Of a DNA stretch of 20,000 nt, positions 1,881-18,972 are shown in pieces; the stretch's first letter is position 1; the number at the start of each line of letters is the position of its first letter. The position numbers and the translations under genes are program-made. Where the stretch lies: the IMG/VR virus record IMGVR_UViG_3300037418_002719. One strand, given 5' to 3'. Below the pieces are notes generated by a model. That model searched no databases. It saw only the letters and a program-made list of their open reading frames with translations, and was not told where the DNA came from. This DNA comes from an uncultured virus (IMG/VR IMGVR_UViG_3300037418_002719). Its lineage: Duplodnaviria > Heunggongvirae > Uroviricota > Caudoviricetes.

Positions 1881-1902
1881 CTGGGTGCCTCACCTCCTCC
1901 TA

Positions 1903-2124
1903 TTACTTAGCCGCAGCGCGCAGGCGATCCAAGCCCTCGCGGTCGTTCTTCCAATCCTCGACCTCGCGCCGCTTCTCTGCGTCCTTAGCCTCCTTCGCAA
2001 CCTTCAGCGACACCGCCTCCATGATCATGTAGTCGATCACGTCGTCAGAGTCCATCTGAGGCCAAGGACGGCCTGATTCCTTGAACGTCCGCCAGAGCCT
2101 AGTCGCCGTAGTCGAGGCCACGAA
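1903..2124 (-). CDS. Tail assembly chaperone C-terminal extension (gpT-like), probably reached by frameshifting
   Basis: Overlapping frame (...FVASTTATRLWRTFKESGRPWPQMDSDDVIDY...RAAAK) between the chaperone and tape measure genes; no convincing RBS of its own; +1 relative to the upstream ORF. Confidence 0.75.
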   Translation of the reverse strand, partial: FVASTTATRLWRTFKESGRPWPQMDSDDVIDYMIMEAVSLKVAKEAKDAEKRREVEDWKNDREGLDRLRAAAK

Positions 2125-2533
2125 ATCGCCGCCACTCTGCCGAGCGGTGCAGGCCTGCGATGTGGTTTCCGAGCGCATCGAGGTCGCGCTGGCGGGTTCC
2201 AATCTCGACGAGAAGCTCGATGTCCTCGTAAGGGAGGTCGGCGACGTCGTCGGCGGTGATCGAGGGCTCCTTGACCATCGTCGTGACTAGCAGTGAGAAG
2301 AACTCAGCCTGCTCGGCGAGAAGCTCCCGCGTGATCGTCTCCTTCTGAATCGCGCCGATTGCAGCATCGAGGAGATTGTTGGGGATCGACCCGTTCTTCA
2401 CCATCTGGGGAAGGTTGGGGATCGTGATTGTGACCTCGGTACCGCTGGGAAGCGTTACCTCGTGAACGCCGGCCTTCTTCCAGGCCGATGCGTCTCTAGG
2501 CTTCGTTACTACCGTCGTGTCGCTGCTGCTCAT
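2099..2533 (-). CDS. Tail assembly chaperone (gpG-like), 144 aa
   Basis: Position between major tail and tape measure genes; SD AGGAGG; N-terminal EVTLPSG motif common in such chaperones. Confidence 0.85.
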   Translation of the reverse strand: MSSSDTTVVTKPRDASAWKKAGVHEVTLPSGTEVTITIPNLPQMVKNGSIPNNLLDAAIGAIQKETITRELLAEQAEFFSLLVTTMVKEPSITADDVADLPYEDIELLVEIGTRQRDLDALGNHIAGLHRSAEWRRFRGLDYGD

Positions 2534-2660
2534 CCTGTGCCTCCTGGGCTGTGGTTTCTGAGTCCCGCATTCTCGCGAGTGACTGGACTAGCAAGCGGGA
2601 CTCCCGCTGTACTCGCTTCGCCTGCGCTAGAGCTAGCTCAAGCCGTGCGTTGTTGTCCAT
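2496..2660 (-). CDS. Small hypothetical helical protein, 54 aa (below ORF-track cutoff)
   Basis: MDNNARLELALAQAKRVQRESRLLVQSLARMRDSETTAQEAQDEQQRHDGSNEA; ATG lies 8 nt after a TATTCT -10 in the late promoter motif; fills most of the 2534-2752 gap. Confidence 0.6.
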   Translation of the reverse strand: MDNNARLELALAQAKRVQRESRLLVQSLARMRDSETTAQEAQDEQQRHDGSNEA

Positions 2661-2668
2661 GTATTAGA

Positions 2669-2689
2669 AGAATACACAAATCAGCGGCA
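2669..2689 (-). promoter_or_regulatory. Putative late promoter TGCC-N11-TATTCT
   Basis: One of eight copies of the motif; immediately downstream of a terminator. Confidence 0.7.
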
Positions 2690-2690
2690 T

Positions 2691-2722
2691 AAAATGAAGA
2701 AGGCCGCGCAGTGGCGGCCTTC
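2691..2722 (-). terminator. Intrinsic terminator after major tail gene
   Basis: GAAGGCCGC-CACTGC-GCGGCCTTC stem followed by TTCATTTT. Confidence 0.8.
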
Positions 2723-2752
2723 AGGTCCATGGCGGTAGCGAAGCGCCTAGGT

Positions 2753-3724
2753 TTAGTAGCTCGCTGTCTGGTTCTTCAAGGTCGCCGTGAGCAGGTCCGT
2801 GACGCCGGTTGCCTTCTGGGCGACGGCGCGAACCGAGGAAACGATCGGCCCGCCGGCCGGGTCTGGCTCAGCCGGGAACTCCTCGTAGGCGATCGACGGC
2901 AAGTCGAAGGCGATCTCATTGTTGGCGTCGAGGGTGAACGTGAAATTCGCCGCAGTGGTGAAGATGTTCGGCGAGATAGCGGTTCCCGTAGCGCCGCCGT
3001 AGTAGAACTTGTTGTACTCGGTGAGATCCTCGAAGAGCAGATCGAACGAGAGGCTGATCTCGCGCTGACCGGCGGTGATGTCGTAGGGGACGACGTCGTC
3101 GGTCTGCTGGCGCTCAAGGTTGTTCTCAACGGTGAGGCTGAACGAACGAATCAGACGAGTCGATGCCCCGCCGAGCGTGATCGCAGCGTTGTTGAAGTTG
3201 AACGGCACGTCCGAGTCAAGCGTCAGAGAGCCGAGCGGGTCGACAGTGAGACGCGTCGGAATCAAGCCCTGAACACCGACGGTGGCGGAGAGCGGCTGGC
3301 CGGCCTCGGCTGCGATCGTGATCGAACCGGCCTGGCAATCCTGGAAGCGCTCGAAGAGCGCGCCAGCGCCACCAATGTTGCGCCACAGGGTCAGCCACGG
3401 CAGCGTCTGCCCCGGCTTGATCGTGTGCGTGTAGTTCGGTGTTGAGCCAGTCGATACTGTGTTGCCGAGAACCCCTGTCAGCCAGAAGCCGAGCGACTCA
3501 GGGCGCACGTAAAGCTCGGGCGAGCCCTCGACGCCAGACGTTGTGATGTATGCGGCGGCCTGGTCGCGAGACGAGTCAGTCTCGGAGAGTCGGTCTGTTG
3601 CCAGAACAGGCGCAATGTTGCCGCCCGAGAATGCGTTGGCGAAGAGCGGCGCTGCTGCTACAGAGCCCTTGGCTGTCTGCTTTGCTCCCGCGATCCAAGC
3701 GGACTTACCGGAAAATCCTGCCAT
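2753..3724 (-). CDS. Major tail (tail tube) protein, 323 aa
   Basis: Position after the tail terminator, size, beta-rich composition and motifs (YTHTI, FSLTVENNL, REISLSF); SD GAAGGAG. Confidence 0.88.
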   Translation of the reverse strand: MAGFSGKSAWIAGAKQTAKGSVAAAPLFANAFSGGNIAPVLATDRLSETDSSRDQAAAYITTSGVEGSPELYVRPESLGFWLTGVLGNTVSTGSTPNYTHTIKPGQTLPWLTLWRNIGGAGALFERFQDCQAGSITIAAEAGQPLSATVGVQGLIPTRLTVDPLGSLTLDSDVPFNFNNAAITLGGASTRLIRSFSLTVENNLERQQTDDVVPYDITAGQREISLSFDLLFEDLTEYNKFYYGGATGTAISPNIFTTAANFTFTLDANNEIAFDLPSIAYEEFPAEPDPAGGPIVSSVRAVAQKATGVTDLLTATLKNQTASY

Positions 3725-3730
3725 CGGTGA

Positions 3731-3976
3731 TTACTCCTTCCAGTCGTCCACTACTGGGGACTCAGGTTCGGTGGGCGTGACTGGCTCGACAACTACTTCG
3801 ACGGCCGGTGCGTCGTCTACGACGACGAACAAGTCAGGGTACGAGGCCTTGATTGTTTCGATGACTACGCGGTCGTCGGTCGTGTACGGAGAGTTATTCA
3901 CCGAGAAGGACACGGTACCAATGGACACGTTGATGTCGCCGTTGGGTGCGCTGGCAGCCTTTGAGATCTTCGCCAT
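3731..3976 (-). CDS. Hypothetical virion-associated protein, about 81 aa
   Basis: Preferred ATG at 3976 (MAKISKAAS...) lies 8 nt after a TATCTT -10; the track's TTG start at 4006 falls within the promoter; acidic Pro-rich C-terminus. Confidence 0.7.
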   Translation of the reverse strand: MAKISKAASAPNGDINVSIGTVSFSVNNSPYTTDDRVVIETIKASYPDLFVVVDDAPAVEVVVEPVTPTEPESPVVDDWKE

Positions 3977-3984
3977 GACCTCAA

Positions 3985-4005
3985 AAGATACCCCACGGCT
4001 CGCCA
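3985..4005 (-). promoter_or_regulatory. Putative late promoter TGGC-N11-TATCTT
   Basis: Shares TGGCGAGCC-N6-TANNNT exactly with the protease promoter. Confidence 0.75.
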
Positions 4006-4014
4006 AAAACCCTA

Positions 4015-4467
4015 CTACGCGGTCGTTTCGATCAATGCAGAGTTGTTTCCCCGCGACTGAACAGTCATCTCAAATCGAGACTTGTTGCCCGTGGCGTCGG
4101 TTGTGTACCTGGTCATGACGACGTCGAAGTACCAAACGCCAGCATCACCGGTGATGCGCGCCGAGGCTAGCGCACGCCGCAGGCGCTCAGCCTTGTTGGC
4201 GATGATCCGTGGATCGACCTGTTGCTGTGGGTCGATGTCGGCCTTATAGGGGTCGAAGAACTGGATCGTACATTGGCCAACAAGCTCGATTCCGCGCGTC
4301 TCCTCAACCTCTGGGTAGATACCCACGTAGGTACGCCCGTCGGTGCCGAGCGAGGCATGCAGACGATCATGACGGATGATCAAGTACTGGATGTCGCTGA
4401 ATTCGGTTTGAATGACCACCTCAAGCGCGTTGGCGAGAAGCGTGTACGGGTCAGTCACTACAGTCAT
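4015..4467 (-). CDS. Putative tail terminator / tail completion protein, 150 aa
   Basis: Synteny (after HK97 gp10-like gene, before major tail), size, ATGA overlap with the upstream gene. Confidence 0.7.
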   Translation of the reverse strand: MTVVTDPYTLLANALEVVIQTEFSDIQYLIIRHDRLHASLGTDGRTYVGIYPEVEETRGIELVGQCTIQFFDPYKADIDPQQQVDPRIIANKAERLRRALASARITGDAGVWYFDVVMTRYTTDATGNKSRFEMTVQSRGNNSALIETTA

Positions 4468-4970
4468 CCTGGAAACTCTTCCTTAGCGATTTGCATCATT
4501 CTGTGTCGCGCTACTTGGTCGTACGAGGGGCGAAGGAACGGCTGCGCACGCGTGCCTGGGTGGAATACCCAAGCGCCGCTCTCGTCCCAGTTCTCATACA
4601 GTCGACCGCTACCTACGGGACCGAAATGCGGATTGTTCCAGACGAACTCGCCGCCCTTCCAGAAGAAGTGCAATCGTCCCTTGATGATGTGCGGGCTGGT
4701 TCCGAGTTCAACATATAGCGCATGTTGAGAGATAGAGTACCAGTAACCGCGAGTTCCCTCAGACGTGCTGCGCATTGAACGCCTCAGCGGAATGTCCCCC
4801 TTCTTGCGACCGCTGGCCTTACCGACGGGTGCCAAGGCGCGCGCTGCCTCCTCGCCCTCCTTGACAGTCCTCGCCACGGTGGCGACGGCGGCCTCGTCAC
4901 AGCGCGCGGCGAATCGACCAAAGTTGTCGCGCGCCATAACGACGCGGGACTTGGCCTTGATCTCAGCCAC
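4464..4970 (-). CDS. HK97 gp10-like neck / tail completion protein, 168 aa
   Basis: Motifs ARALAPV, HALYVELGT and HPGTRAQPFLRPS typical of the HK97-gp10 family. Confidence 0.88.
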   Translation of the reverse strand: MAEIKAKSRVVMARDNFGRFAARCDEAAVATVARTVKEGEEAARALAPVGKASGRKKGDIPLRRSMRSTSEGTRGYWYSISQHALYVELGTSPHIIKGRLHFFWKGGEFVWNNPHFGPVGSGRLYENWDESGAWVFHPGTRAQPFLRPSYDQVARHRMMQIAKEEFPG

Positions 4971-5629
4971 TACAATCGAGGGACGATGTAGTTCTGAAGA
5001 ATGGCCTGCGCGCGCAAAGGAATTGCCTCTTCAATGTCGGCGGCGGCCCTGGTTCGGGAATAGTTCTCGATTGATTCCTGTGTGTACGGACGGGTTGTCT
5101 CAGCCAATGCGTCGGCGATGATGATTGTGGCGCGCTTTACATCGTCGGGGATCTCAGGCCAGCCCCACGTTGCGGTGACGTTGACGATGTTAGGCTTCTG
5201 TGGCAACTTCCAGTACAAGGTGTCCAGGTTGTACGTGAAGCCCATCTCCGGAGAACCCACCCCGTAGGCGTTTGGTGCAAGCTGAAGCCAGCGCTTGACA
5301 GGGCTGTTGAGTGGATACGCAGACCACTCATTCACACTGAGCGTGGTCGCTGTGATCGTGTCGCCTGTCCAGCCGGACTGAACCGAAACATCCATCACGG
5401 TCTGACATTCGTCGATGTCAAGGAAGCCGCTCCCGTCGTATTCGTACTGACGCACGTCTGAGAACGGCACCTCCTCGCTGACATTGAACTCTAGACCAGT
5501 AAAATTCCTCACCATCGATGACGCAGACGCCACAGCAAGCGTGAACTTGTCATCGTCCGGAGTCTCCACAGTCGGCGGCAGACCAAGGGCCATCTTGAAG
5601 GTGGCGAGATCAATCAGCGGCGTAGCCAT
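4970..5629 (-). CDS. Head-tail adaptor (SPP1 gp15 / HK97 gp6-like), 219 aa
   Basis: N-terminal LIDLATFKMALG, ASSMVRNFTG; C-terminal VTATWGWPEIPDDVKRA, ESIENYS, ILQNY; synteny. Confidence 0.85.
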   Translation of the reverse strand: MATPLIDLATFKMALGLPPTVETPDDDKFTLAVASASSMVRNFTGLEFNVSEEVPFSDVRQYEYDGSGFLDIDECQTVMDVSVQSGWTGDTITATTLSVNEWSAYPLNSPVKRWLQLAPNAYGVGSPEMGFTYNLDTLYWKLPQKPNIVNVTATWGWPEIPDDVKRATIIIADALAETTRPYTQESIENYSRTRAAADIEEAIPLRAQAILQNYIVPRL

Positions 5630-5635
5630 ACTCTA

Positions 5636-5656
5636 AGGGTACTCGCGGCCTAGACA
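5636..5656 (-). promoter_or_regulatory. Putative late promoter TGTC-N11-TACCCT (leaderless, ATG 6 nt downstream)
   Basis: Motif copy; adaptor gene has no SD. Confidence 0.7.
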
Positions 5657-5683
5657 CGAAAAGGGCCGCTCGGAAGCGGCCCT
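5654..5683 (-). terminator. Intrinsic terminator after capsid unit
   Basis: AGGGCCGCT-TCCG-AGCGGCCCT stem followed by TTTCGTGT. Confidence 0.85.
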
Positions 5684-5708
5684 CATGAGTTTCGATTCGC
5701 TCCGTGAC

Positions 5709-6047
5709 CTAGGAGAGGTCCGGAACGTGCTCCTCGCCGGAGTCCGAGCCGACAGCGCGGACGTGCTCGGAATCACTGCCCTCGCCGGCCTCCGAGGAAA
5801 CCGGGAGCGGAGCGGCCGTCGTGCCAAACTTGGCCTCGACGACTCCGGTGGCGAGCGCCTCGCCCAGCGGGACTGTGATGCGGTCGCGCTTGGCGTCGGC
5901 GTCCTCAGGGATCTGAACTGCCAGCGACGAGTTCGGATCGAGGATCACCTCATCGGCACGGAACACGGTCTCGTGGACGTGGAGGTCTCCTCCGCCCTGA
6001 GCCTCGCGAACCTCGCGGACTACTGTGTATCGGTCTTCAGTTGCCAT
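5709..6047 (-). CDS. Hypothetical acidic protein downstream of major capsid, 112 aa
   Basis: ATG with SD AAGGAG; between capsid gene and terminator. Confidence 0.8.
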   Translation of the reverse strand: MATEDRYTVVREVREAQGGGDLHVHETVFRADEVILDPNSSLAVQIPEDADAKRDRITVPLGEALATGVVEAKFGTTAAPLPVSSEAGEGSDSEHVRAVGSDSGEEHVPDLS

Positions 6048-6065
6048 TGTTGATACTCCTTAGGC

Positions 6066-7376
6066 TTAGCCGTTGGCGAGTCCGACGCCGCCGATGACGT
6101 TGAAGGCCACCGGTGCGCGCGCGGCGGTGAAGCCGACTCGCTGCTCAGCGCGGAAGATCGTCTGGTTGCTGGTGAACAGGACGTGCGGCGACTCGTCGAC
6201 CGTGATGCCCTGGCGGTCGAGGATCAGAGCCTCGGAGAAGTCTCCGACGATGACGCGCGACTCGTTGGTTCCCGTACCGAGGTTGGTCGGGATGCGGTTG
6301 CTGGTGACGACCTTGAAGCCGAAGAGCGACTTGTTGGCTGCGCGACCCTGCTGGACCGAGTCCGGCCCAACCAAGTACAGACCCTGGGCATCCTTAGCCT
6401 TCAGGATGCGCGTCCAGGTGCGCGGGTGCATGACGATGGCGGTCGGCTCACCGTGGTTGTCCTGGACGTTAGCGATAGCGTCGAGGATCGAGTCAAGGAG
6501 GCCGCCGTCGTCGGTGACGGTGATGTTGGTCAGCGTGGTAGCGCCGAGACCAGGCGTGTTGAGCAGGCCGAGCGGCTGGCCGGTGCCGGAACCGTTGAGG
6601 AACGCTGTCTCCTCAAGGGCGACAAGGCGCTTCGCAAGGTCAGAGGTGACGAGGCGGTCGACGGCTGGGTTCGAGTCAGCAAGTAGCTGGTTCGAGATCG
6701 TGGCCAGGCCGGCTGCGGTGAAGACCGAGGCCGAGACCGTGGTCTTCGCCATGCTGGTCGACTCAGGCTTGGTCGCAAGCTCGGCGACCCATCCAGCCGA
6801 CGTACCGAGCGTTAGCTGGTCAAGCTGTAGCTCGTTCGTGGTGATGTTGAGCTTCGAGCAAAGCGCGCGAAGAACGTTGTCGGACTCGCGGACCTCGACG
6901 ATCTGACGCTCGATCTGCTTCTCGACGAGGTAGCCGCCCTGGTTGGCAGTTCCCTCAGTCATGGCCTTGCCGCCGGTGGCGTTCATGAGGCGCTCGCGCG
7001 CCGAACCGTCACCCTTGGAGGCTAGTCGAATGTCGTTGAAGAACGAGTACTCGCCCGAGTCGTACGGGGTCTCGTCGTCGGTGACGGCCTTACCGTCAAC
7101 GCGGCCAATGGCGAACGGGCCGATCGGCTTCTTGAGATCCTCGATGACCTCGTCGAGCGTAGTGACCTTAGCGCGTAGCGCCTTGACCTCTTCCTCACGC
7201 TCGCGATCTGCGCGCTCAGACTTCAAGCGCTCGATCTCCGGTGTGATCTCGTTCTGAACCTGCTCGATGAAGGACTTGACGTCCTCTGCTGGTGCGCCGC
7301 TCTCAGCCTTTGAGAGAAGCTCGCTTGCACGGCTCTCTAGGGCCTCAATCTTGGCAACGATTTCCTGAAGTTCCAT
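6066..7376 (-). CDS. HK97-fold major capsid protein with N-terminal delta (scaffold) domain, 436 aa
   Basis: N-terminal coiled coil, then GGYLV, AGWVAE, ISNQLLADS, FLNGSGTGQPLG, KDAQGLYL, VGDFS, FRAEQRVG. Confidence 0.97.
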   Translation of the reverse strand: MELQEIVAKIEALESRASELLSKAESGAPAEDVKSFIEQVQNEITPEIERLKSERADREREEEVKALRAKVTTLDEVIEDLKKPIGPFAIGRVDGKAVTDDETPYDSGEYSFFNDIRLASKGDGSARERLMNATGGKAMTEGTANQGGYLVEKQIERQIVEVRESDNVLRALCSKLNITTNELQLDQLTLGTSAGWVAELATKPESTSMAKTTVSASVFTAAGLATISNQLLADSNPAVDRLVTSDLAKRLVALEETAFLNGSGTGQPLGLLNTPGLGATTLTNITVTDDGGLLDSILDAIANVQDNHGEPTAIVMHPRTWTRILKAKDAQGLYLVGPDSVQQGRAANKSLFGFKVVTSNRIPTNLGTGTNESRVIVGDFSEALILDRQGITVDESPHVLFTSNQTIFRAEQRVGFTAARAPVAFNVIGGVGLANG

Positions 7377-7444
7377 AACTAGTGAGTAATCCTAGCTCCG
7401 TGCCTGCCACTTTGTGACGTGCGTTGGTTGATTCGACTCAACAA

Positions 7445-7465
7445 AAACTACACACATCAGTGACA
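7445..7465 (-). promoter_or_regulatory. Putative late promoter TGTC-N11-TAGTTT for capsid (about 60-nt leader)
   Basis: Motif copy; 14/17 identical (CTGATKTGTGTAKTYTT) to the copy at 2668-2684. Confidence 0.7.
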
Positions 7466-7476
7466 GCGGCGGGCCA

Positions 7477-8436
7477 CTAGTAGACATGGACACCGTCAGC
7501 GCCGCCCTCAGTGTTGTCGTGGACTTCCTTGAGACCGACGTGCTCGATAACCTGACCAAGCTTCCCGACGAGCGCATCGACGCGCGCAGCTACCTCTTCA
7601 GGAGACATACCGACGGTCTCCTTGAGTTCGCTGAATCGTGATCGAAGCTCATCAGAGAGGTGTTCAGTATTGATGGAGCCGTTGGCGATGTGCTCGGCGG
7701 TGATAGAGCCCGGCTCTACCGCCGATACGGCTGGCTCATCGACCTCAGGCTCGTCGACCTCTGGCTCGTCTGGTGTTTCCTCAGGTACCGGTGTTTCCGT
7801 CTCCGGAATTTCCTCGACCTCTGGCTCGACGACTGAGTCATCGACGACCTCGACGGCCGGCGCTTCATCGTCCTCGGACTTGCCCTCAAGTACTGGCGCT
7901 GACTCGAACGCCTTACCGGCAACGACCGCAAATGTCGTGCGAGGATTGACCGGGAACGGTGTGACGCTGATCTCGCCGAGGTCAACGTCGTAGATTCGCG
8001 GACCGGACTTCGTCATGCGGCGCTTGAAGATGCCGCCAACGGAGAACGCCTTGATGGTTCCGCGCTTGATCTTGTTGAAGATGTCTTCGGCCCACGAGCC
8101 AGCGGCTGGACGGTCAACGCGGCCTCGTACCCATAGTCCGTGCTCGTCAACCTTGGCGTCGGTGAATACACCAAGCGCCTTGTCGTACTGGTGGTGGTAC
8201 AGCATGATCGGGTTCACCGATAGGAAGCTCTTCAGGCCGCGCTCGAACGCGCCAGGCTCGAAGGCCTCTTCCTGTCGATCCACACCCCAATCGCTGGCGT
8301 AGCCCTCCACCCAGATGTCACCGTTCTCATCCTCTGTGACCTCATATGCCTTCTGGTCAAGGAAGAAGTCGTAGCGGAACTCCGCCTGCTGCGTTCCGTC
8401 TGGCTGAGTGGTGACTGCCTTAGTGCCGAATGACAT
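7477..8436 (-). CDS. HK97-family prohead maturation protease with acidic C-terminal extension, 319 aa
   Basis: VEGYAS, DRQEEAFEPGAF, MLYHH, FSVGG, EISVTPFPVNP; Glu/Pro-rich linker and C-terminal helix. Confidence 0.95.
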   Translation of the reverse strand: MSFGTKAVTTQPDGTQQAEFRYDFFLDQKAYEVTEDENGDIWVEGYASDWGVDRQEEAFEPGAFERGLKSFLSVNPIMLYHHQYDKALGVFTDAKVDEHGLWVRGRVDRPAAGSWAEDIFNKIKRGTIKAFSVGGIFKRRMTKSGPRIYDVDLGEISVTPFPVNPRTTFAVVAGKAFESAPVLEGKSEDDEAPAVEVVDDSVVEPEVEEIPETETPVPEETPDEPEVDEPEVDEPAVSAVEPGSITAEHIANGSINTEHLSDELRSRFSELKETVGMSPEEVAARVDALVGKLGQVIEHVGLKEVHDNTEGGADGVHVY

Positions 8437-8443
8437 AGAGAAA

Positions 8444-8464
8444 ATCGTACGTATTGGCTCGCCA
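8444..8464 (-). promoter_or_regulatory. Putative late promoter TGGC-N11-TACGAT (leaderless, ATG 7 nt downstream)
   Basis: Motif copy; no SD before the protease ATG. Confidence 0.75.
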
Positions 8465-8465
8465 C

Positions 8466-8498
8466 AAACACGAAAGGCCAGGTCAATGACCTGGCCTT
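8466..8498 (-). terminator. Intrinsic terminator
   Basis: 12-bp perfect inverted repeat AAGGCCAGGTCA/TGACCTGGCCTT running into TTTCGTGTTT. Confidence 0.85.
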
Positions 8499-8520
8499 GA
8501 AAGTGTTCAGCGTTGGTGGT

Positions 8521-8727
8521 CTACTTGTAGTCGGCTACGGTGTCGGCGTAGACGCGCTTACCGGTCGAGCGGCCGGCGGTGCCGGTCTTGCCTGCGACGC
8601 GGTAGTTGGGTGCCTTCTGGTCGGCCAGGTTGGTGAAGGTCTTCGCTGGCTTCGCAGAGTTGTTGCCCTGGGCCGGGCGAGCGACTGAGCGAGCGCGATT
8701 AGCGGTGGGCATAGTCTTTCGAGCCAT
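8521..8727 (-). CDS. Small basic hypothetical protein, 68 aa
   Basis: MARKTMPTANRARSVARPAQG...; ATG 7 nt after a TACTAT -10; bounded by terminators on both sides; the track's longer start at 8805 would run through the terminator. Confidence 0.75.
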   Translation of the reverse strand: MARKTMPTANRARSVARPAQGNNSAKPAKTFTNLADQKAPNYRVAGKTGTAGRSTGKRVYADTVADYK

Positions 8728-8734
8728 GCCAGAT

Positions 8735-8755
8735 ATAGTAGACCCCACAACGACA
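8735..8755 (-). promoter_or_regulatory. Putative late promoter TGTC-N11-TACTAT (leaderless)
   Basis: Motif copy overlapping the tail of the nrdJ terminator. Confidence 0.75.
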
Positions 8756-8779
8756 AGGACCGCCCGGAGGCGGCCCTTG
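8747..8779 (-). terminator. Intrinsic terminator after nrdJ
   Basis: CAAGGGCCGCC-TCCG-GGCGGTCCTTG stem followed by TCGTTGT. Confidence 0.75.
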
Positions 8780-8817
8780 CGTGACTTCAACGAACCTCGA
8801 ACCACACTAGAAGTGTA

Positions 8818-10737
8818 TCAGATTTCGCACGAACCAGCCATACAGGCAAGCTCCTGTGAGCCCTCTGTCATGTCGTCGCTCTCGTAGATCTCCAACAACG
8901 ACCAATCAACAGCCTTGGGCATTTCCGCGAGCAGTGCCTCGTACTCAGGCTTCGAGACCTCCTCGTATGGTGCCTGGTCGTAGGTGTGCTCCGAGTACGG
9001 CAGGAACGACAGTCCGACAACGATGTCGAAGTTCTCATACACCCAGTCACCGACTACGTCCCATTCGTCGTTGCGTACGTTGACCGTTACGGACGGGTTG
9101 TGGTCGCACCAATGCTCGGCGAAGACTTTCCAGTGTTCGAGCACATCGATTGCTGAGAGATCAGACCTAGTAACGGCCGTCTCCGGTGCCTGCTTTGGGT
9201 ACGAGAACACCCAGGTCTTATCGGGATTCATCACATCATCCTCACACGGCACGCCAGCCATGTAGAGAACATTGGCTACCGGGTCGTGCTTGTTGCCTCG
9301 ATTGCGGCGGATGTAGTATCGACCGTGCGCGGCATGCATTCCGTTTCCGTGCCCACCAACGAGTTCCGTTGAGTTCCCGGCCGGCTTCATGCACGTCCTG
9401 GCCAGCGACGCATTGATGCCAATGATCTCAGCGTACTTGGAGTTCGTAACCCTGACTACGTGGTTTAGTTGATCAAGGATGCGGGCCATCTCATCCTTAT
9501 CAGCCTTAGCGTTCAGCAAGGGCGAGTCCTGGACGCCGGTCATGCCGACACCGAGAAGGCGCTCTTCCTCAGAGTTCCTCTTCCAATCATCGCTGATGTA
9601 GCGGAAGTGTGTGAACGACGATTGGATTGTTCCGATCATCGTGGCAACTCGAACCTTTCTGGTGAGCGAAATCAAGTCATCCTCTGGTCGAACCGTGATC
9701 TGCGAGAGGTTGCAGAACTGTCGATCACGAAGGATGATCTCGCCGCAGGGGTTGAGTCCGAACTTGTAGAACGAGCGGCCCAACTTGGTGGCCTTCGCGG
9801 CGGCGGCTGCGCGGTTGAAGAACCCGCGCTCGCCGCTGCCTGAGGCGCGCAGCGCTGCCCACTCAGCGTTGAAGACTTCTCGCGACGGTCGACCATCCCA
9901 CGCCGCTGAGTTGTTAGCGAGCGCAAAGTGCTTGCGGTGGTCGTCGTTGTACCATTCGCCGGACTTGGCGTCGCGCATCATGAGGTCGTCGGGAGACGAC
10001 AATGAAATCAGCGCAGAACGACGAACGCCGCCCACAACTACGACCTCGCCCACCATACACATGATGGAGTGCGCCTCGATCGGCGTCAGACGACGACCAG
10101 CGGCGTGCTCGAACACACCAATCGTGTGCAAGAACAGCCGCACCAACGGATCAGGCCCAGAGGCACGCCCGCCAAAGGTCTTGAGCTTCGCGCCGGCCTC
10201 ACGCACACGCGAGACGTCAAACTCAGGGATGCGCCCCTCGTAGAGAGCGGAAATCAGGGCACGGAACGCGTATGCCCAGCCGTCCTTGGAATCCTCAACA
10301 ACAATGACATCATCGACGCGTACCAAGACCGCCGGAATCTCAGGAAGCTGCTCGACCTCGTCAGGCTCGACAGAAAAACCAACTCCGGTTCCGCACATCA
10401 AGATGTGCATGGCCTCGTCAAAGGCCTCCGGGCGATTTACAGCAATATATGAACAGTTGTAGGCGGCTGTAGCGTCGCGCTCCAACGCTGGCCCAGCGGT
10501 CATCAATGCGCGCATCGATGGTAGGACGTCGCGCGAAAGGATAGACGACCTGATCAGACCGTAGTCCTCTTCAGAGAGCGGTCTGTGGCGTCGCTCAAGA
10601 TGACTACGAACGTAATCAACAAAACGGTCAACGGTCTCTTCCCACGTCTCGCGGCGGGCTAGATCATCGCGCCAACGAGCGTACTTGGACTGGTGGATCT
10701 GCTGCTCATAAAGCGTCGGCAGCGCGTGCGACAACAT
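8818..10737 (-). CDS. nrdJ: Class II (adenosylcobalamin-dependent) ribonucleotide reductase, 639 aa
   Basis: KYARW..RRETWEETVDR, PSMRALMTAG, YNCSY, GGVRRSALIS, NPCGEI, FCNLS, KPAGNS, HNPSVTV, C-terminal CMAGSCEI; no small-subunit gene adjacent; SD AGGAG. Confidence 0.95.
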   Translation of the reverse strand: MLSHALPTLYEQQIHQSKYARWRDDLARRETWEETVDRFVDYVRSHLERRHRPLSEEDYGLIRSSILSRDVLPSMRALMTAGPALERDATAAYNCSYIAVNRPEAFDEAMHILMCGTGVGFSVEPDEVEQLPEIPAVLVRVDDVIVVEDSKDGWAYAFRALISALYEGRIPEFDVSRVREAGAKLKTFGGRASGPDPLVRLFLHTIGVFEHAAGRRLTPIEAHSIMCMVGEVVVVGGVRRSALISLSSPDDLMMRDAKSGEWYNDDHRKHFALANNSAAWDGRPSREVFNAEWAALRASGSGERGFFNRAAAAAKATKLGRSFYKFGLNPCGEIILRDRQFCNLSQITVRPEDDLISLTRKVRVATMIGTIQSSFTHFRYISDDWKRNSEEERLLGVGMTGVQDSPLLNAKADKDEMARILDQLNHVVRVTNSKYAEIIGINASLARTCMKPAGNSTELVGGHGNGMHAAHGRYYIRRNRGNKHDPVANVLYMAGVPCEDDVMNPDKTWVFSYPKQAPETAVTRSDLSAIDVLEHWKVFAEHWCDHNPSVTVNVRNDEWDVVGDWVYENFDIVVGLSFLPYSEHTYDQAPYEEVSKPEYEALLAEMPKAVDWSLLEIYESDDMTEGSQELACMAGSCEI

Positions 10738-10762
10738 GTACTCCTAGTGCTGAAAGTTATTA

Positions 10763-10832
10763 TCTCGGTCCCGGCGGGGCGTCCGCCGGAGAGGTGCGAT
10801 CGACGTAGTCGCCGTCTTCCTCAGGACCGAGA
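10763..10832 (-). ncRNA. Candidate structured cis-regulatory RNA in nrdJ leader
   Basis: 9-bp closing stem TCTCGGTCC/GGACCGAGA enclosing two hairpins, ending about 26 nt before the nrdJ ATG. Confidence 0.4.
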
Positions 10833-10976
10833 AAAGTATCAACCGCCATGCCTACGAAGCACGCAGGTAGTCCTAGTGTTCGTACCACCTTATAGGTGGT
10901 TATCAACCCAATACCCGCGGCCAGTTTGAGGCCGCTGATCGCTAGGGTTGCTTGGACTGACGGGTGTAGGAGACGC

Positions 10977-11225
10977 CTAGCCGGCGTCGGAGAGAAGGCG
11001 GTCCGGTGAATGCGCGGCGTCCCACTTCTCATAGTACTTCTCAAAATCGAGATGCGCCTTCTGGGAGCGCGCTTCGGAAATCTCCATCGGTGTCACGTTC
11101 TTACATAGTGAGGTGCGCTCACCACAAGATGGACACAACTTGTAGACATCCAAAACCGGCCAGTTGAGGGCGCAGATGGAACATCTACGCGCTCGCTCGA
11201 TCTCGTCGTGACGGTCAGCGATCAC
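10977..11225 (-). CDS. Zinc-ribbon hypothetical protein, 82 aa
   Basis: CSIC...CPSC; GTGA overlap with upstream gene; SD GAGG. Confidence 0.8.
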   Translation of the reverse strand: MIADRHDEIERARRCSICALNWPVLDVYKLCPSCGERTSLCKNVTPMEISEARSQKAHLDFEKYYEKWDAAHSPDRLLSDAG

Positions 11226-11380
11226 TCTTCCTCATTCTCCGCGATACCGTAGAGAAGAGCAAAGCTGATCGCCTCGTTGAGTAGCGCGAGCGCCGCCACC
11301 GGAACGCCAGCCCACGGCGACACCGAAAACACCAGCAGCGTCGCCAGGACCAGCAAGGTCGTCGACAGCGGGGCCGGCAT
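11222..11380 (-). CDS. Small membrane protein, about 52 aa, two hydrophobic segments
   Basis: MPAPLSTTLLVLATLLVFSVSPWAGVPVAALALLNEAISFALLYG; TGATG overlap with upstream stop. Confidence 0.7.
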   Translation of the reverse strand: MPAPLSTTLLVLATLLVFSVSPWAGVPVAALALLNEAISFALLYGIAENEEE

Positions 11381-11727
11381 CACGCGGCCTCGTCGAACGC
11401 CGACTTGAATCGCGGCCACAGCATACCTAGATCACAAACCAGGCAAACGCGCGCAAAGCCCGCGCCGCGCTCAAGCATGCTCTTACGCTTCTTGGATGTC
11501 TCGGCGACAGGATCGTACGTCACCACCGCCATAGTCTCGTTACCGCAGCCGCAGGTGTGGGCCTCGTCGAAGCCCTTGCCGCGCGGCTTCGGAAACCGAA
11601 CCAGTTGGCCCTCGCAGCGATCCGGCAGGATCGCGCCGCCTTGATGCTCGACCTCCTCAACGAGGACATTGAGGTCATCTAGTGTGAACTCAGGTCCGTT
11701 AGCACCAATATTGGGCTCTTCACTCAT
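11380..11727 (-). CDS. Cys-rich hypothetical protein, 115 aa
   Basis: CGCG and CLVC motifs; overlaps upstream gene; SD GAGG. Confidence 0.75.
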   Translation of the reverse strand: MSEEPNIGANGPEFTLDDLNVLVEEVEHQGGAILPDRCEGQLVRFPKPRGKGFDEAHTCGCGNETMAVVTYDPVAETSKKRKSMLERGAGFARVCLVCDLGMLWPRFKSAFDEAA

Positions 11728-12004
11728 CGCTTTCCTCGTTTTCGATCTCTACGTGCTCTCCGCAATGCGGGCAGTCGAATTCGAGCGAACCCAGATCCAA
11801 CATGAAGTCCAATTCAGGCTCGGGCCAGTCGCGTGCTACGACTTCTCGCAAGCGGTCCTTGACAACCGTGAGATAGCCGATAGCATTCTCAGGAGACATA
11901 CCATCGTAGGAGAATTGCGGCGCGGTCCCGTTCTCGTTGAGCACGACCTCGATGGTGATCGTGCCCACGACGGGAAGGTCTTGCTGCTCTTGCGTCTGCT
12001 GCAT
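11720..12004 (-). CDS. Acidic hypothetical protein with C-terminal CPHC, 94 aa
   Basis: ATG 11 nt after an extended -10 TGC-TAGACT; tiles with downstream ORFs. Confidence 0.75.
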   Translation of the reverse strand: MQQTQEQQDLPVVGTITIEVVLNENGTAPQFSYDGMSPENAIGYLTVVKDRLREVVARDWPEPELDFMLDLGSLEFDCPHCGEHVEIENEESDE

Positions 12005-12038
12005 GGGGTGTTAGAAGTCTAGCACCCCGGCGCTTTCG

Positions 12039-12236
12039 CTACCTGCGGCGGCGGCGTCGCTTTCTGCGCGACGGCGTCGTCTTCGGCGTGTTGCGCGGCT
12101 TGCCGCGCTGGTAGGAGTCGACGACCACGCGCGTCTTGCCGCGATCCGGGCCGCGCGGCGAGCGGGTGTGCGACTTCACGGCTACGCCGGTGCGCGATCC
12201 TGGCTTGCGCTTTCTCTTCTTTCGGCCTCGGGTCAT
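12039..12236 (-). CDS. Arg/Lys-rich protamine-like small protein, 65 aa
   Basis: 28 of 65 residues are R/K; two VxVxS(H/Y)xR repeats; directly after portal, with a late-promoter motif copy. Confidence 0.75.
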   Translation of the reverse strand: MTRGRKKRKRKPGSRTGVAVKSHTRSPRGPDRGKTRVVVDSYQRGKPRNTPKTTPSRRKRRRRRR

Positions 12237-12243
12237 GGTCGAC

Positions 12244-14478
12244 CTAGATTACCGCCTCGGGCGGCAGCGAGATCGGCGTGAATGCCCGGCGGCAGCGCGG
12301 GTGCTCCAGGCGACGCTCGCGTGCCTCGTCAATGGTCCATACTTGTCCGTCGGCGGCAATGCAGGGCTCGTCATGGTCTCGTCCATCGTGGACGAAGACG
12401 TGCGACTCGCCGTTCATCTCGGCTACCGTGAGCACGCCCTCGTTGTAGGCATGGACAGCCTCTGTCATGGCTACGGTCTCGGCGTGTCCACTACGCCAGC
12501 GGTCCATCTCGCCGCGGATGGCGCGCTCGATATCGCTCTTGGTCTGGCCGGCGCTCAAAGCCTCGGCGACCTTACGTGCGACATCATTACGAAGGTTGTT
12601 GATGATGGCGCGGAGGCCGCCCTTGCGGTAGACGACCTCACGGGCTACGGCCTCGTAATCGATTTCCTCGTCGGGGCGGCGTCCAACTGTTCCCTGCTGG
12701 ACCACCGAGGTAGAGACGGCTCGCTTGGTGGCCTTCTCCAGCGCACGAGCCATCAAGGACTGAAAACGAGTCCAGGCCGACGACTTGCGTAGCTTACTGC
12801 GGATTCTATCGCCCGGTGCCTTTCCCTCGACGGCGCGCTCAAGCTCATCCAACAGGTCACGCTCAAGCGAATGAATCGCTTCCTTGATCTCAGCGGTCAA
12901 CTCCGCGGTGATCGCGTCCACGGCGATGTCACGATCGCTCATCAGGACGTCGTCCGGGGGCGTGATACGCGACGCTAGATCATGACTGGCGGGTTCCATG
13001 GCCTTAGCGCCAGCGGCGATTTCCTCAAGCCGGGCGATGATCTCGTTGGCGTCGAAGGACTTGCCGGAGGCGACGGCTGTTCGCGACTTCGGCTTCGGCA
13101 GGCTGGTGTCGCGCACGCTGCGCGGGAAGGCGACCGTGTTCTCTGGGTTCGGAGGGCGGCCAGGTTCGCCCGCGAGGTTGAAGTCGGGGAAGCCGGCCGT
13201 GGTGTCGTCGGCGGTTCCATTCGGTCCGGGAAGGTTGATGACGAGGTCGTCGCGCTCGTCGCCAAGCGGGTCCAGCCCGGCGTACTTACGTACCTCGCGG
13301 ATACGGACGCCCGGCAGGGCCGCGAACGCGGACGAGAGGCGGAGCTTCTCCTCCTCGGGGATGATGTACTCGTAGTCGATCTTGAAGTCCATCTCCCAAG
13401 GCGACGTGATGCCCTTGGAGATCGCCTTCTGGAGCTTGTTCAACAACGGACGCATCGTCTTGTTATCGAAGATGCGCTGATCGGCGTTGCTGGTGCCGGT
13501 CGCGGCGGGCGCTGACGCGTAGCCCAGCAGCGAGGCCGGGACGCGGAACATGGCAAAGATCCGATCGCGTGAGAGGTTTGTGAGGTTCTCGAACGCCGCG
13601 TCGGTCGCCGACGGCGCGATCGACTGATACTTCAGTCCGGCTTCGAGCACCATCAGCGCGCCCGCATTGCGGGGGCCTCCATACATGGCGCGTAGCTGGG
13701 TCTGGAGGCGACGCAGCACGTCCTTCGGGACGCGGCGGTCGGACTGCACCACCATCGAAGGCTGGGCGCGCTTCTCGTAGTAGCTGGCCATCGTATCGGT
13801 GAGCGCTAGGTCCATGTCGAAGACCCGCGACCCGCCCTGGATGACGCCGAGCCCATAGTAGGGGTCGTGCGGGTTCGGCATCTTGAAGTGCATGACCTGA
13901 CTCGAAGGGATCTTCAGCTTGCCGGTCCCGGGAACAGAGTATTCATAGGACTCGATCCCCCATTGGCCGGGAACGACCTTGACCAGCGGCGGGGCGAGCC
14001 GATAAATCGCCAGCGGTCGACCCGACGAGTCCGGCCGCCACTTCAGCCAATATGCGTTGCCGGTGAGCAGGTAGTCGATCAGCGTTAGCTCGATCAACTC
14101 CTCGTAGCCCATGAACGGATTCGGGTCTTCGAAGAGCTTGCCTAGCAGGTAAGGGGCGGACTTGATCTCGTCCGGCGTGTGCGGCGTGCGGCGCGACTCC
14201 GGAATGTAAGAGACGCCCTTCTGCTCGAAGTGCCACTCAGCCGATGACGCGGTCTCCGTAATGAGGCGCACGCAGTCCATGACCCAATCGACAGCGTCCA
14301 CCTTGCCTCCGTAGGCGTTGAGGTGTCGCCCAGCCTCGCGCTGCGCAAACGGTGTCCGCGTCCGAGCAGGACCATCGACGATGATCGGCTGTGTCGGCCC
14401 GGCCATCAGGTCGGGTGTCGCAGGGAACGCCTTCTGGGCCGCGCCGGCCTGTGCTCGCATCATCGCCTTGAGGTCCAC
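12244..14478 (-). CDS. HK97-family portal protein fused to a C-terminal MuF (Mu gpF / SPP1 gp7) minor head domain
   Basis: Portal motifs PNPFM, LLTGNAY, VMHFK.PNP...YGLG, VLEAGLKY, IFAMFRVP, IREVRKYAGLDP; MuF motifs AETVAMTEAVHAYNEG, C...DG, HPRCRR. ORF is open to ATG 14523, but GTG 14478 lies 7 nt after a TAATAT -10 and is preferred. Confidence 0.93.
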   Translation of the reverse strand: MDLKAMMRAQAGAAQKAFPATPDLMAGPTQPIIVDGPARTRTPFAQREAGRHLNAYGGKVDAVDWVMDCVRLITETASSAEWHFEQKGVSYIPESRRTPHTPDEIKSAPYLLGKLFEDPNPFMGYEELIELTLIDYLLTGNAYWLKWRPDSSGRPLAIYRLAPPLVKVVPGQWGIESYEYSVPGTGKLKIPSSQVMHFKMPNPHDPYYGLGVIQGGSRVFDMDLALTDTMASYYEKRAQPSMVVQSDRRVPKDVLRRLQTQLRAMYGGPRNAGALMVLEAGLKYQSIAPSATDAAFENLTNLSRDRIFAMFRVPASLLGYASAPAATGTSNADQRIFDNKTMRPLLNKLQKAISKGITSPWEMDFKIDYEYIIPEEEKLRLSSAFAALPGVRIREVRKYAGLDPLGDERDDLVINLPGPNGTADDTTAGFPDFNLAGEPGRPPNPENTVAFPRSVRDTSLPKPKSRTAVASGKSFDANEIIARLEEIAAGAKAMEPASHDLASRITPPDDVLMSDRDIAVDAITAELTAEIKEAIHSLERDLLDELERAVEGKAPGDRIRSKLRKSSAWTRFQSLMARALEKATKRAVSTSVVQQGTVGRRPDEEIDYEAVAREVVYRKGGLRAIINNLRNDVARKVAEALSAGQTKSDIERAIRGEMDRWRSGHAETVAMTEAVHAYNEGVLTVAEMNGESHVFVHDGRDHDEPCIAADGQVWTIDEARERRLEHPRCRRAFTPISLPPEAVI
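12246..12266 (-). promoter_or_regulatory. Putative late promoter TGCC-N11-TAATCT inside the last portal codons
   Basis: Motif copy; ATG of the basic protein 9 nt downstream. Confidence 0.55.
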
Positions 14479-14485
14479 GGAGAGA

Positions 14486-14506
14486 ATATTATGCGCCGCC
14501 GTGCCA
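14486..14506 (-). promoter_or_regulatory. Putative late promoter TGGC-N11-TAATAT (leaderless GTG)
   Basis: Motif copy at the head of the structural module. Confidence 0.7.
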
Positions 14507-14509
14507 CCC

Positions 14510-14655
14510 CAAGTGGTACGCATCGGTGGTGGGTATTTCGAGCCTCGCTTGGTTCATGTCCACGCCACTTGGCCCCCTCTATAGGGGGCCGAAGTGTCAA
14601 GTGGTCAATCACCGCATTCTAGAGCCAAATTTTTTACCCACATTCGACCCACTTG
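14510..14655. repeat. Four CAAGTGG heptamers in alternating orientation plus a central inverted repeat
   Basis: CAAGTGG 14510-16 and 14598-604; CCACTTG 14565-71 and 14649-55; GGCCCCCT-CTAT-AGGGGGCC 14571-90. Confidence 0.6.
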
Positions 14656-14716
14656 AATCTGACGCCTGCGTCATCTTTGTTCCCTGAGCGCTGGTACGAA
14701 GCCCCGACGGCGGCTC

Positions 14717-14733
14717 TTGACATCTGGTACGCT
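14717..14733 (+). promoter_or_regulatory. Putative extended -10 promoter TGG-TACGCT (leaderless ATG at 14741)
   Basis: TGn-TANNNT 7 nt before an SD-less ATG at the head of the plus-strand operon. Confidence 0.6.
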
Positions 14734-14740
14734 TCCATGT

Positions 14741-15064
14741 ATGGCAGCAAGGCACCCAATCGACGACGAACTCGTCGTCGCAGAGGCCGCGGTGCGTCAC
14801 GCTCAGATGGTGCGCAGGTTTCACGCCAGGAAGTCGCCGAGAGGAAGCGCTCAGCGGCAGGCCGACCTTCAAGAGGCGCGAGAACGCCTCAGGACGGCGA
14901 TGAAGCCGCTGCGCTCATACCTAGGACGCGCCGCTTACAAGAATGCAACCAACTACAACGCTGATCTACATGATCGCGTGCGCGAGACGTCAGCGGCGAT
15001 GCAGAAGGAGCGCCGCAAGCTTCACAAGATGGCCGCGAGGAGCACGAATGCTAGACCACGATGA
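14741..15064 (+). CDS. Basic helical hypothetical protein, 107 aa
   Basis: MAARHPIDDELVVAEAAVR...; first gene of a tightly tiled operon. Confidence 0.75.
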   Translation: MAARHPIDDELVVAEAAVRHAQMVRRFHARKSPRGSAQRQADLQEARERLRTAMKPLRSYLGRAAYKNATNYNADLHDRVRETSAAMQKERRKLHKMAARSTNARPR

Positions 15065-18877: not shown

Positions 18878-18966
18878 TTGGCACTTCTCAGTGGGTCGCG
18901 GTCGGCGGGCTTGTGCTTTGGCTGCTGCTGGTTCTAGCTGTCGTCTACGTAGGACTTAGCGAATAG
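18874..18966 (+). CDS. Possible single-pass membrane peptide, about 30 aa, non-canonical CTG/ATT start
   Basis: (L)IGTSQWVAVGGLVLWLLLVLAVVYVGLSE fills the gap to the terminator. Confidence 0.4.
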   Translation: MIGTSQWVAVGGLVLWLLLVLAVVYVGLSE

Positions 18967-18972
18967 AACGAC

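Follow-up and report, generated by a model that had tools for sequence, protein, structure and literature searches.

The 20,000-nucleotide (nt) stretch of viral DNA analysed here (hereafter the window; IMG/VR record IMGVR_UViG_3300037418_002719) carries on its minus strand nine sites of the form TGBC-N11-TANNNT, in which a short box is set at a fixed distance upstream of a host-type −10 hexamer, associated with the genes of a virion module. Judged by position, spacing and conservation these sites are a real and conserved promoter class that is specific to virion genes, and we think it likely that they form one class serving the virion, packaging and tail-fibre genes of a high-G+C tailed phage of about 140 kb and of its relatives, and that this class is read in the following way. 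The primary-sigma holoenzyme of the host would read the TANNNT −10, which is usually preceded by G, and the box would take the place of the −35 contact as the target of a factor specific to this class. That factor would most probably be a protein that the phage produces earlier in infection. Through this factor the virion genes would be switched on late, in a manner resembling the middle promoters of T4 or the late promoters of the Thermus phage Lalka27a, as a set of separately promoted units: portal; a 65-amino-acid (aa) protein; a 68-aa protein; protease; capsid, with two promoters; adaptor and neck; the gene preceding the tail tube gene together with the tube; and chaperones, tape measure and tail. 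The late timing, the transcript starts and the nature and origin of the reading factor are all predicted from the DNA sequence, and we regard the late-promoter system as a well-supported prediction and not as a demonstrated system.

Eight of the nine sites had been described in a first-pass annotation of the window as having a spacer of exactly 11 nt, no TTGACA-like −35 and, in two pairs of sites, a longer common string. All eight were found with the 11-nt spacer at the positions given in Table 1, none has TTGAC 16–18 nt upstream and both common strings (TGGCGAGCC and CTGATKTGTGTAKTYT) are present. That annotation had overlooked the ninth site, which lies next to the capsid gene, as well as the leaderless geometry and the adjacency to terminators described below. 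Within the window the pattern TGBC-N11-TANNNT occurs 10 times against 2.54 ± 1.59 expected, and none of 200 dinucleotide shuffles reached 10. Nine of the 10 matches are on the minus strand; the single plus-strand match (224–244) is antisense within the tape-measure gene and looks like a chance occurrence.

The window corresponds to bases 1–20000, read on the reverse strand, of a single virus contig of 139,911 base pairs (bp) with 61.5% G+C, to which CheckV assigns a completeness of 100%. Our own simple gene caller made 259 open reading frame (ORF) calls over the genome and missed the 65-aa ORF and a 54-aa ORF. Genome-wide there are 906 TANNNT hexamers, 20 of which (2.2%) have TGBC at N11. When the count is confined to the 34 hexamers that lie 5–12 nt ahead of a start (one that was called, or one in frame further upstream), TGBC stands at N11 in eight and at any other spacer from 3 to 25 nt in at most one (Fisher p = 1.5e-7), and two more motif sites precede the uncalled 65-aa and 54-aa ORFs, both of which are conserved in relatives. 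Because the bare pattern is not enriched over the whole genome, the significance of the motif lies in its position relative to gene starts.

The sequence of the box was examined in a large IMG/VR family of relatives, with 56 loci (290 kb) as the ingroup and 19 further loci as an outgroup. Among 260 unique family sites with TANNNT before an ORF, collected without presupposing TGBC, the four bases at the box position were TGTC in 50, TGGC in 21, CGTC in 13, TGAC in nine, CGGC in seven and TGCC in only three. The earlier TGBC thus approximates the box but does not describe it fully, as the family-wide form is YG(T/G/a)C followed by a purine and TGCC is rare; on these counts the box is better given as YG(T/G)C(A/G). 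The 74 unique family sites read T, G, then T (50), G (21) or C (3), then C, then A (50) or G (20), followed by nine poorly conserved bases, G (48/74) and TANNNT. The consensus is YG(T/G)C(A/G)-N10-TANNNT, with the box's initial base exactly 15 bp 5' of the first T of the hexamer and the box at about −27 to −23. In the family set TGBC also seemed to be overrepresented at spacer 6, which was rejected as an artefact of overlapping hexamers and near-identical contigs.

The promoter class is kept in relatives down to 42% capsid identity, with 85 sites in the 56 ingroup loci. Among start-proximal TANNNT hexamers of the ingroup the box is at N11 in 85 of 319, compared with 0–15 at other spacers, and at least one site is present in 46 of the 56 loci; in the outgroup the corresponding figure at N11 is 3/50. 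In relative L003 (95% identity) all nine window sites are kept, the T, G and C of the box being identical at 27/27 positions and the T, A and T of the hexamer likewise at 27/27, with the spacer identical at only 68/99 positions and the flanks at 65–73%. Orthologues of the genes that have the motif in the window have it in 7/7 cases for capsid, 2/2 for the 54-aa ORF, 2/2 for the 81-aa gene preceding the tail tube gene and 2/3 for portal (the third has CGTC). For window genes that lack the motif the count in relatives is also 0/22, and these genes have ribosome-binding sites or overlapping starts instead. Among distinct relatives, the exact motif 5' of the capsid gene, usually TGTCAC-N9-TANNNT, was found in 21 of the 23 whose capsid is at least 54% identical and in none of the five at 25–28%. 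Examples of family members with the box are G002, G006, G007 and G008; examples with none at the capsid promoter are L063 and L066–L072. The proximal of the two capsid sites is better conserved than the distal one, which was followed in L003. At the position matching the 81-aa gene promoter, sites are also present in L008, L009, L010 and G007, and L008 has a motif site before an ORF of 93 aa with a match to the 65-aa protein. A weight matrix trained on just 17 sites from distant relatives placed seven late sites among its top eight matches in this genome. In a complete 81.7-kb relative with terminal repeats the box is found before the portal, protease and capsid genes, a 154-aa gene, the gene in the position preceding the tube, a 71-aa gene and a putative small terminase gene.

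Outside the window there are three strict sites near gene starts, all before packaging or tail-fibre genes (Table 1), and the remaining eight strict matches in the genome are intragenic, antisense or distant from any start. A second promoter class, TTGAC-N16–18-TANNNT, occurs 21 times in the genome against 3.95 ± 2 in shuffles, and many of its members are likewise leaderless; none of the 21 precedes a virion gene on the coding strand between 5.5 and 29 kb. Non-virion genes have either this canonical promoter or, in the case of the reductase block, a TGn-extended −10. Two proposals of the first-pass annotation are borne out by these results: that the class is limited to virion genes, as its strict form is found only before virion, packaging and tail-fibre genes, and that it is a distinct class in which a −10 of host type goes together with a box fixed at about −27 to −24 and a −35 is lacking, which the sites and their spacing support. 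The non-virion candidate promoter at 12016, said there to be without the box, indeed has no box at N11. Conventional promoter types were also considered as readings of the late sites and rejected. A canonical −35/−10 arrangement does not fit since no late site is among the 21 TTGAC sites and the logos have no signal at that distance. For an extended −10 (TGn-TANNNT) the T at −3 from the hexamer is present in only 10/74 and the G at −2 in 16/74, the only biased base being the adjacent one (G in 48/74). The sigma-54 consensus has GG at −24 and GC at −12 (TGGCAC-N5-TTGCW); here the third base of the box is T in 50/74, so that GG is not conserved, TANNNT stands at the position of the GC, and TGGCAC is read only at the portal site.

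Since the hexamers lie 6–9 nt before an ATG or GTG at most window sites (6–8 nt in six, 9 nt in one, 12 nt in one and 68 nt at the distal capsid site), leaderless messenger RNAs (mRNAs) are predicted, and transcripts of the late class should have their first base at the start codon or only a few bases away from it. The gap in the 85 family sites is 7 nt in 34, 6 nt in 26, 10 nt in 14, 8 nt in five, 9 nt in five and 11 nt in one, which places 65/85 at 6–8 nt. A TANNNT beginning about 12 nt before the start codon is a recognised signature of leaderless genes in high-G+C Actinobacteria and Deinococcus-Thermus, as set out in the available text of PMC3160421. Of the six sites whose upstream DNA was folded, those at 8755, 8464, 5656 and 2689 have a G+C-rich hairpin with a T-run directly on their 5' side (−18 to −25 kcal/mol, z −3.7 to −4.9), and no terminator hairpin was found 5' of those at 7465 and 4005. 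As the hairpins directly precede promoters, the virion module appears to be split into units each made up of a terminator, a promoter and a leaderless gene.

Table 1. Promoter sites, adjoining hairpins and gene order (window positions unless marked as genome positions).
Feature	Position	Strand	Description
Virion module, first part			−	order: portal fused to MuF-like domain; very basic 65-aa protein; five small genes and class II ribonucleotide reductase; basic 68-aa protein
Virion module, continued		−	order: prohead protease (Peptidase_S78); major capsid protein; head–tail adaptor and Neck1-type protein; 81-aa gene and tail tube; chaperones and tape measure
Portal–MuF promoter	14486..14506	−	TGGC-N11-TAATAT; 7 nt to GTG at 14478; orthologous site in L003, L010, G007
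65-aa protein promoter	12246..12266	−	in 3' end of portal gene; TGCC-N11-TAATCT; 9 nt to ATG at 12236; kept in L003
TGn-extended −10, for contrast	12016..12024 (genome 7977–7985)	−	TGC-TAGACT; no late-class box; 11 nt before first small gene of reductase block
Terminator-like hairpin	8753..8780	−	3' of ribonucleotide reductase gene, adjoins 8755 promoter; −24.7 kcal/mol, z = −4.9, 0/200 shuffles as stable
68-aa basic protein promoter	8735..8755	−	TGTC-N11-TACTAT; 7 nt to ATG at 8727
Intrinsic-terminator-like hairpin and T-run	8474..8498	−	just 5' of protease promoter; −19.8 kcal/mol, z = −3.7
Prohead protease promoter	8444..8464	−	TGGC-N11-TACGAT; 7 nt to ATG at 8436; orthologous sites in L003, L007, L008, L011, G007
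Distal capsid promoter	7445..7465	−	TGTC-N11-TAGTTT; 68 nt to capsid ATG (leadered transcript predicted); kept in L003
Proximal capsid promoter	7389..7409	−	TGGC-N11-TAGGAT; 12 nt to capsid ATG at 7376
Terminator-like hairpin and TTTT	5663..5682	−	3' of 112-aa gene downstream of capsid gene, adjoins adaptor promoter; −20.1 kcal/mol, z = −4.5
Head–tail adaptor promoter	5636..5656	−	TGTC-N11-TACCCT; 6 nt to ATG at 5629
Promoter of acidic 81-aa gene and tail tube gene	3985..4005	−	TGGC-N11-TATCTT; 8 nt to ATG at 3976; kept in L003, L006
Intrinsic-terminator-like hairpin and T-run	2699..2722	−	3' of tail tube gene, just 5' of 2689 promoter; −18.1 kcal/mol, z = −4.7
Promoter of 54-aa ORF heading chaperone, tape-measure and tail genes	2669..2689	−	TGCC-N11-TATTCT; 8 nt to ATG at 2660; kept in L003, L006 (2/2)
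Late-class site	genome 43397	−	6 nt before 149-aa gene overlapping large terminase subunit gene
Late-class site	genome 120597		6 nt before tail-fibre protein gene (phrog_9017, E = 4.6e-15)
Late-class site	genome 127237		53 nt before 302-aa gene heading block with 1021-aa BNR-repeat protein and BppU_N protein

Several observations weigh against the reading that we favour. The box is short and degenerate; the 20 matches to the bare pattern in the whole 139,911-bp genome are about what chance would give; and a reversed control pattern is about equally frequent in five relatives. The first-pass annotation had asked whether the motif is equally frequent upstream of non-structural genes or in shuffled intergenic sequence, and the answer is divided: it is enriched in the window and at gene starts, but the bare pattern genome-wide is no commoner than chance. 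The positions of gene starts come from the simple caller (259 ORFs). Conservation is uneven, the exact capsid motif being present in just 6/24 relatives at 39–51% capsid identity, although in several relatives without it TGTCAC is retained and either the hexamer is a variant one or the spacer is 12 nt long. The box of the adaptor promoter is exact in only 1/5 relatives; in our by-eye reading of L006, L008 and L009 the hairpin-like repeat and a well-placed −10 stay and the box is TGCG, TGCT or GGCC, and L010 has neither the hairpin-like repeat nor the −10. The canonical TTGAC promoter at genome 109869 also has CGTC at N11, and a leaderless gene that follows a terminator hairpin at genome 29741–29764 (+) has TGTC-N7-TACTCT, with a spacer of 7 and not 11. 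(At this last site the ATG, 6 nt after the hexamer, is that of a basic protein starting MARR, and the site has the look of the late class apart from its spacer.) Many relatives have GGAG before the capsid ATG, so that the capsid protein may be translated partly from a leadered read-through mRNA; in L043–L064 it is GGAG or AGGAG that lies between hexamer and ATG where the gap is 9–10 nt, and in such relatives the capsid could be translated both from leadered read-through mRNA and from near-leaderless mRNA made from its own promoter. Finally, that the reader is encoded by the phage is an assumption, and a host factor is possible: scans with Pfam (the ORFs called elsewhere in the genome plus 32 in the window), PHROGs (238 ORFs) and NCBIfam (150/259) gave no sigma, WhiB, MotA/AsiA or transcription-factor family.

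The first-pass annotation had called for a search of the rest of the genome for a phage sigma-like, WhiB-like or other known activator, and none turned up either among the 259 ORF calls or in six-frame searches for sigma and WhiB domains. The WhiB search gave only a sub-threshold match of 15.8 bits (cut-off 23.6) inside the gene for the CCA-adding enzyme (136597–138018). The searches with Sigma70_r2 and Sigma70_r4 gave no match at E-values up to 10, with control genomes positive, and this tells against a diverged phage sigma that would replace the host sigma and for which TANNNT would be the −10 and the box a −35 set close to it. The fixed spacing of two short elements is typical of sigma recognition, and such a protein could hide among the ORFs, most of which have no match to a Pfam, PHROGs or NCBIfam family; on the other hand the 11-nt gap is far below the 16–18 nt of the genome's canonical promoters, and the hexamer is the same TANNNT as in its canonical, early-type promoters, which points to region 2 of the host sigma. 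We consider a phage sigma of this kind very improbable. The sole sigma-like signal (20 bits against a cut-off of 259) is a region-4-like helix-turn-helix in the 149-aa protein, which was rejected as the reader, being in the position of a small terminase and itself under a late promoter. A conserved 167-aa protein beside the terminase genes was dropped as a candidate because of a RuvC-like DPGxxTGW motif recognised by eye. Searches of PDB sequences with four conserved unannotated proteins and two alignments yielded nothing useful. Unannotated core proteins common to this genome and the 81.7-kb relative, which are candidates for the reader, are encoded at genome 51216–51857 (213 aa), 58354–59148 (264 aa), 59247–59666 (139 aa), 64302–64532 (76 aa) and 63625–63972 (115 aa).

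Two of these proteins may be described more fully, although nothing ties either of them to the box. One is a 213-aa protein (genome 51216–51857, −) that is present in 5/5 relatives, lies between the DNA polymerase A and deoxynucleoside monophosphate (dNMP) kinase genes in G000, G002 and G007, and has a C-terminal T5orf172/MUG113 (GIY-YIG-like) domain. Its structural model is poor, with a predicted local distance difference test (pLDDT) score of 57.6 and the N-terminal 95 residues below 50; by eye its N-terminus resembles AP2 (FRGV...TAEEAAQDY), a likeness with no profile match behind it. The other is a 115-aa protein (genome 63625–63972), found in 3/5 relatives and in 2/2 complete ones, for which AlphaFold2 predicts a MarR/PadR-like winged helix (pLDDT 83; top Foldseek match a MarR-family protein, E = 8e-5, template modelling score about 0.57). 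A protein of this type would suit an explanation in which the box is an operator, at which a phage or host repressor bound at −27 to −23 holds constitutive −10-only promoters off until late, and −10-only promoters are described as functional in high-G+C bacteria in the available text of PMC3160421. The box, however, is a 5-bp asymmetric element at a single fixed spacing, whereas MarR-type dimers normally bind longer palindromes at variable positions, and the logos have no conserved inverted repeat around the sites; we therefore hold a repressor operator to be extremely improbable.

It may also be that the box is read by a component of the host, either an alternative sigma or a protein associated with RNA polymerase, with no phage factor involved and with timing set by host physiology or by the loss of competition from early promoters. 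The failure to find a phage sigma or activator family fits such a reader. So does the presence in Lalka27a and the mycobacteriophage Rosebush, which are unrelated phages of other hosts, of short boxes that resemble the present one and stand at an almost equal distance from a −10 of host type, and the short-box design could be a general property of RNA polymerase in high-G+C bacteria. Yet the box sequences differ among the three phage groups, and the confinement of the class to virion genes, with host-type TTGAC promoters elsewhere, is the usual sign of a phage-directed switch. As to an alternative host sigma, we know of no consensus in which a TANNNT of the housekeeping type is accompanied by an element just 11 nt upstream of it. 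A host reader thus seems to us unlikely, if still worth serious consideration, and a class-specific phage factor acting with the host holoenzyme remains our preferred reading.

The genome itself gave few pointers to the host of the phage. A megablast search against a phage collection gave zero matches to cultured phages and a search of an endolysin atlas gave no clue to the host. The hints that there are conflict, with identities of only about 28–36% in each case: compared with cultured phages the capsid protein is at most <30% identical, the nearest being those of actinophages; for the large terminase the matches of best coverage are phages of Thermus and Meiothermus (about 29% identity) and an acidobacterial phage; and among cellular genomes the closest capsids come from metagenome-assembled genomes of Planctomycetota (33–36% identity).

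Some other features of the genome were noted. The 65-aa protein (window 12039–12236, −), which has its own late-class promoter and no family match, is extremely basic: it contains stretches like RKKRKRK and has RRKRRRRRR at its C-terminus. It could be a DNA-condensing or internal virion protein. Inside the virion module, between portal and protease, lie the class II (B12-dependent) ribonucleotide reductase gene and five small ORFs (window 8818–12004, −), a block with its own TGn-extended −10 and a terminator 3' of the reductase gene; the three small ORFs that can be aligned by tblastn (genome 7997–8281, 8274–8621 and 8914–9024) have the same position in the 81.7-kb relative. There are 20 transfer RNA (tRNA) genes, two of them in the window, for Met and Glu, and an RNA and translation repair set that includes RtcB, RNA ligase, RlaP, PTH2 peptidyl-tRNA hydrolase, the CCA-adding enzyme and an RF-1-domain (ArfB-like) protein; the positions noted for these features are window 19793–19954 (−) and genome 125356–126547 and 133183–133735. 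A 438-aa protein (genome 86208–87524, −) has a DGQHR domain (DndB/DpdB-like; TIGR03187, E = 1.7e-25) and is possibly linked to DNA modification or anti-defence. An AAA_25 replicative helicase-like protein (genome 54168–56360, −), about 303 residues of which can be aligned in relatives G002 and G007, has LAGLIDADG and Hom_end domains, a sign that it may hold an intein. About 2.5 kb (genome 107400–109900) are without a called ORF or tRNA; this stretch separates the long block on the minus strand from the one on the plus strand, which opens with the canonical leaderless promoter at 109869. Possible NAD (nicotinamide adenine dinucleotide)-salvage genes at genome 37428–38603, 66772–67380 and 114379–114912 encode nicotinate/quinolinate phosphoribosyltransferase-like and isochorismatase/nicotinamidase-like proteins and a NUDIX hydrolase.

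The consensus YG(T/G)C(A/G)-N10-TANNNT 6–7 nt before a start is precise and testable, and it applies to a large family of 80–140-kb phages known only from metagenomes, whose transcription units, start codons and small genes it allows to be annotated from sequence alone. The provision of separate promoters for capsid and tail tube is a plausible means of setting protein ratios. The first-pass annotation had presented the late system as one not previously described. This stands for the consensus, as literature searches gave no paper with it (the Lalka27a promoter logos, which are in supplements, were not covered by these searches), but not for the system as such, since the late promoters of Lalka27a are similar and have led to the same conclusion.

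Lalka27a is the closest described case. The available account of that phage (bioRxiv 10.64898/2026.04.20.719267) gives 16 late promoters that have TAGGGT as their −10 and, without exception, a C at −25 and that yield leaderless transcripts, the 5' ends being mapped for half of the promoters; no phage sigma or RNA polymerase was recognised and its authors propose a phage factor that alters the specificity of the host polymerase. Both systems have many late promoters before virion genes. In each these have a −10 of host type, lack a −35 and share one conserved position at about −25, and the mRNAs are leaderless (by prediction here), the hexamer in Lalka27a being 6–7 nt before the ATG. The systems differ in that Lalka27a has a fixed TAGGGT where the three middle bases of the hexamer are free here, and in the box, which in its genome (PQ109076) is (T/G)GACC with the C 12 nt 5' of the hexamer, compared with YGKC and a C at 11 nt. 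Transcript starts are mapped for half of its sites and predicted from sequence here, and in the accessible text its authors report no terminators between collinear late genes, whereas four promoters here adjoin terminators. When all 259 ORFs were compared with its genome by tblastn only an SNF2-type helicase matched, and no candidate for a common reader protein emerged.

In functional terms the closest match is with the middle promoters of T4, at which a host-type −10 is kept, a class-specific box at a fixed distance replaces the −35 and sigma region 4 is remodelled. These promoters consist of a MotA box and a host −10, and sigma is appropriated by AsiA together with MotA (as summarised in the available part of PMC7403470). 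No MotA or AsiA homologue was found here in the Pfam, PHROGs and NCBIfam scans, and the box of T4 is unlike the present one in sequence and position. The T4 middle box is centred at about −30, and the transcripts from T4 middle promoters are not known to be leaderless as a class. The Thermus phage P23-45 likewise moves the host polymerase to −35-independent promoters, gp39 displacing sigma region 4 and thereby bringing about a switch to extended −10 middle and late promoters (also from the available part of PMC7403470), but that class needs a TGn next to the hexamer which is not conserved here, and the virion module of P23-45 (NC_009803.1) has no TGBC-N11-TANNNT at gene starts, its genes having ribosome-binding leaders. 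The 'TA-led' leaderless genes of Actinobacteria and Deinococcus-Thermus, as far as the accessible texts describe them (PMC3160421, PMC12340547, PMC4007540), resemble the present genes in that TANNNT about 12 nt before the start serves as promoter and as the mark of leaderless genes; they are host gene starts in general and the text of PMC3160421, in the part available, gives no fixed upstream box for them, whereas here a box at fixed spacing marks one class of phage genes.

Mycobacteriophage Rosebush (cluster B) has GTGCAC-N10-TAGTGT before its major head and major tail genes, again with TG 15 nt 5' of the hexamer, a host-type −10 and no −35, and we found no published description of this box. 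It differs in having TGCAC in place of TGKCR, leaders of about 65–90 nt and just two such sites seen in 40 kb. Promoters of cluster O mycobacteriophages were rejected as a parallel, being canonical −35/−10 promoters in the part of the source available. Taken with Lalka27a and Rosebush, the present family is a third case in which a short box near −25 replaces the −35 in late promoters of a phage of a high-G+C host, and if the mechanism is common to these phages it would constitute a new way of redirecting the host polymerase. A more specific version is that the box is a −35-like core (TGNC, compare TTGACA) lying 6–7 bp nearer to the −10 and read by region 4 of the host sigma, repositioned by a small phage protein; short-spacer late promoters would then be a recurrent strategy in unrelated high-G+C phages (TGKC-N11 here, TGAC-N12 in Lalka27a, TGCA-N11 in cluster B mycobacteriophages) and would amount to sigma appropriation in a new mode, one linked to leaderless translation, which we put forward as a speculative and rather improbable extension. 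Phage late promoters that combine a host −10 with a class-specific element in place of the −35 are already known; in the present family they appear to be coupled to leaderless mRNAs and to units bounded by terminators.

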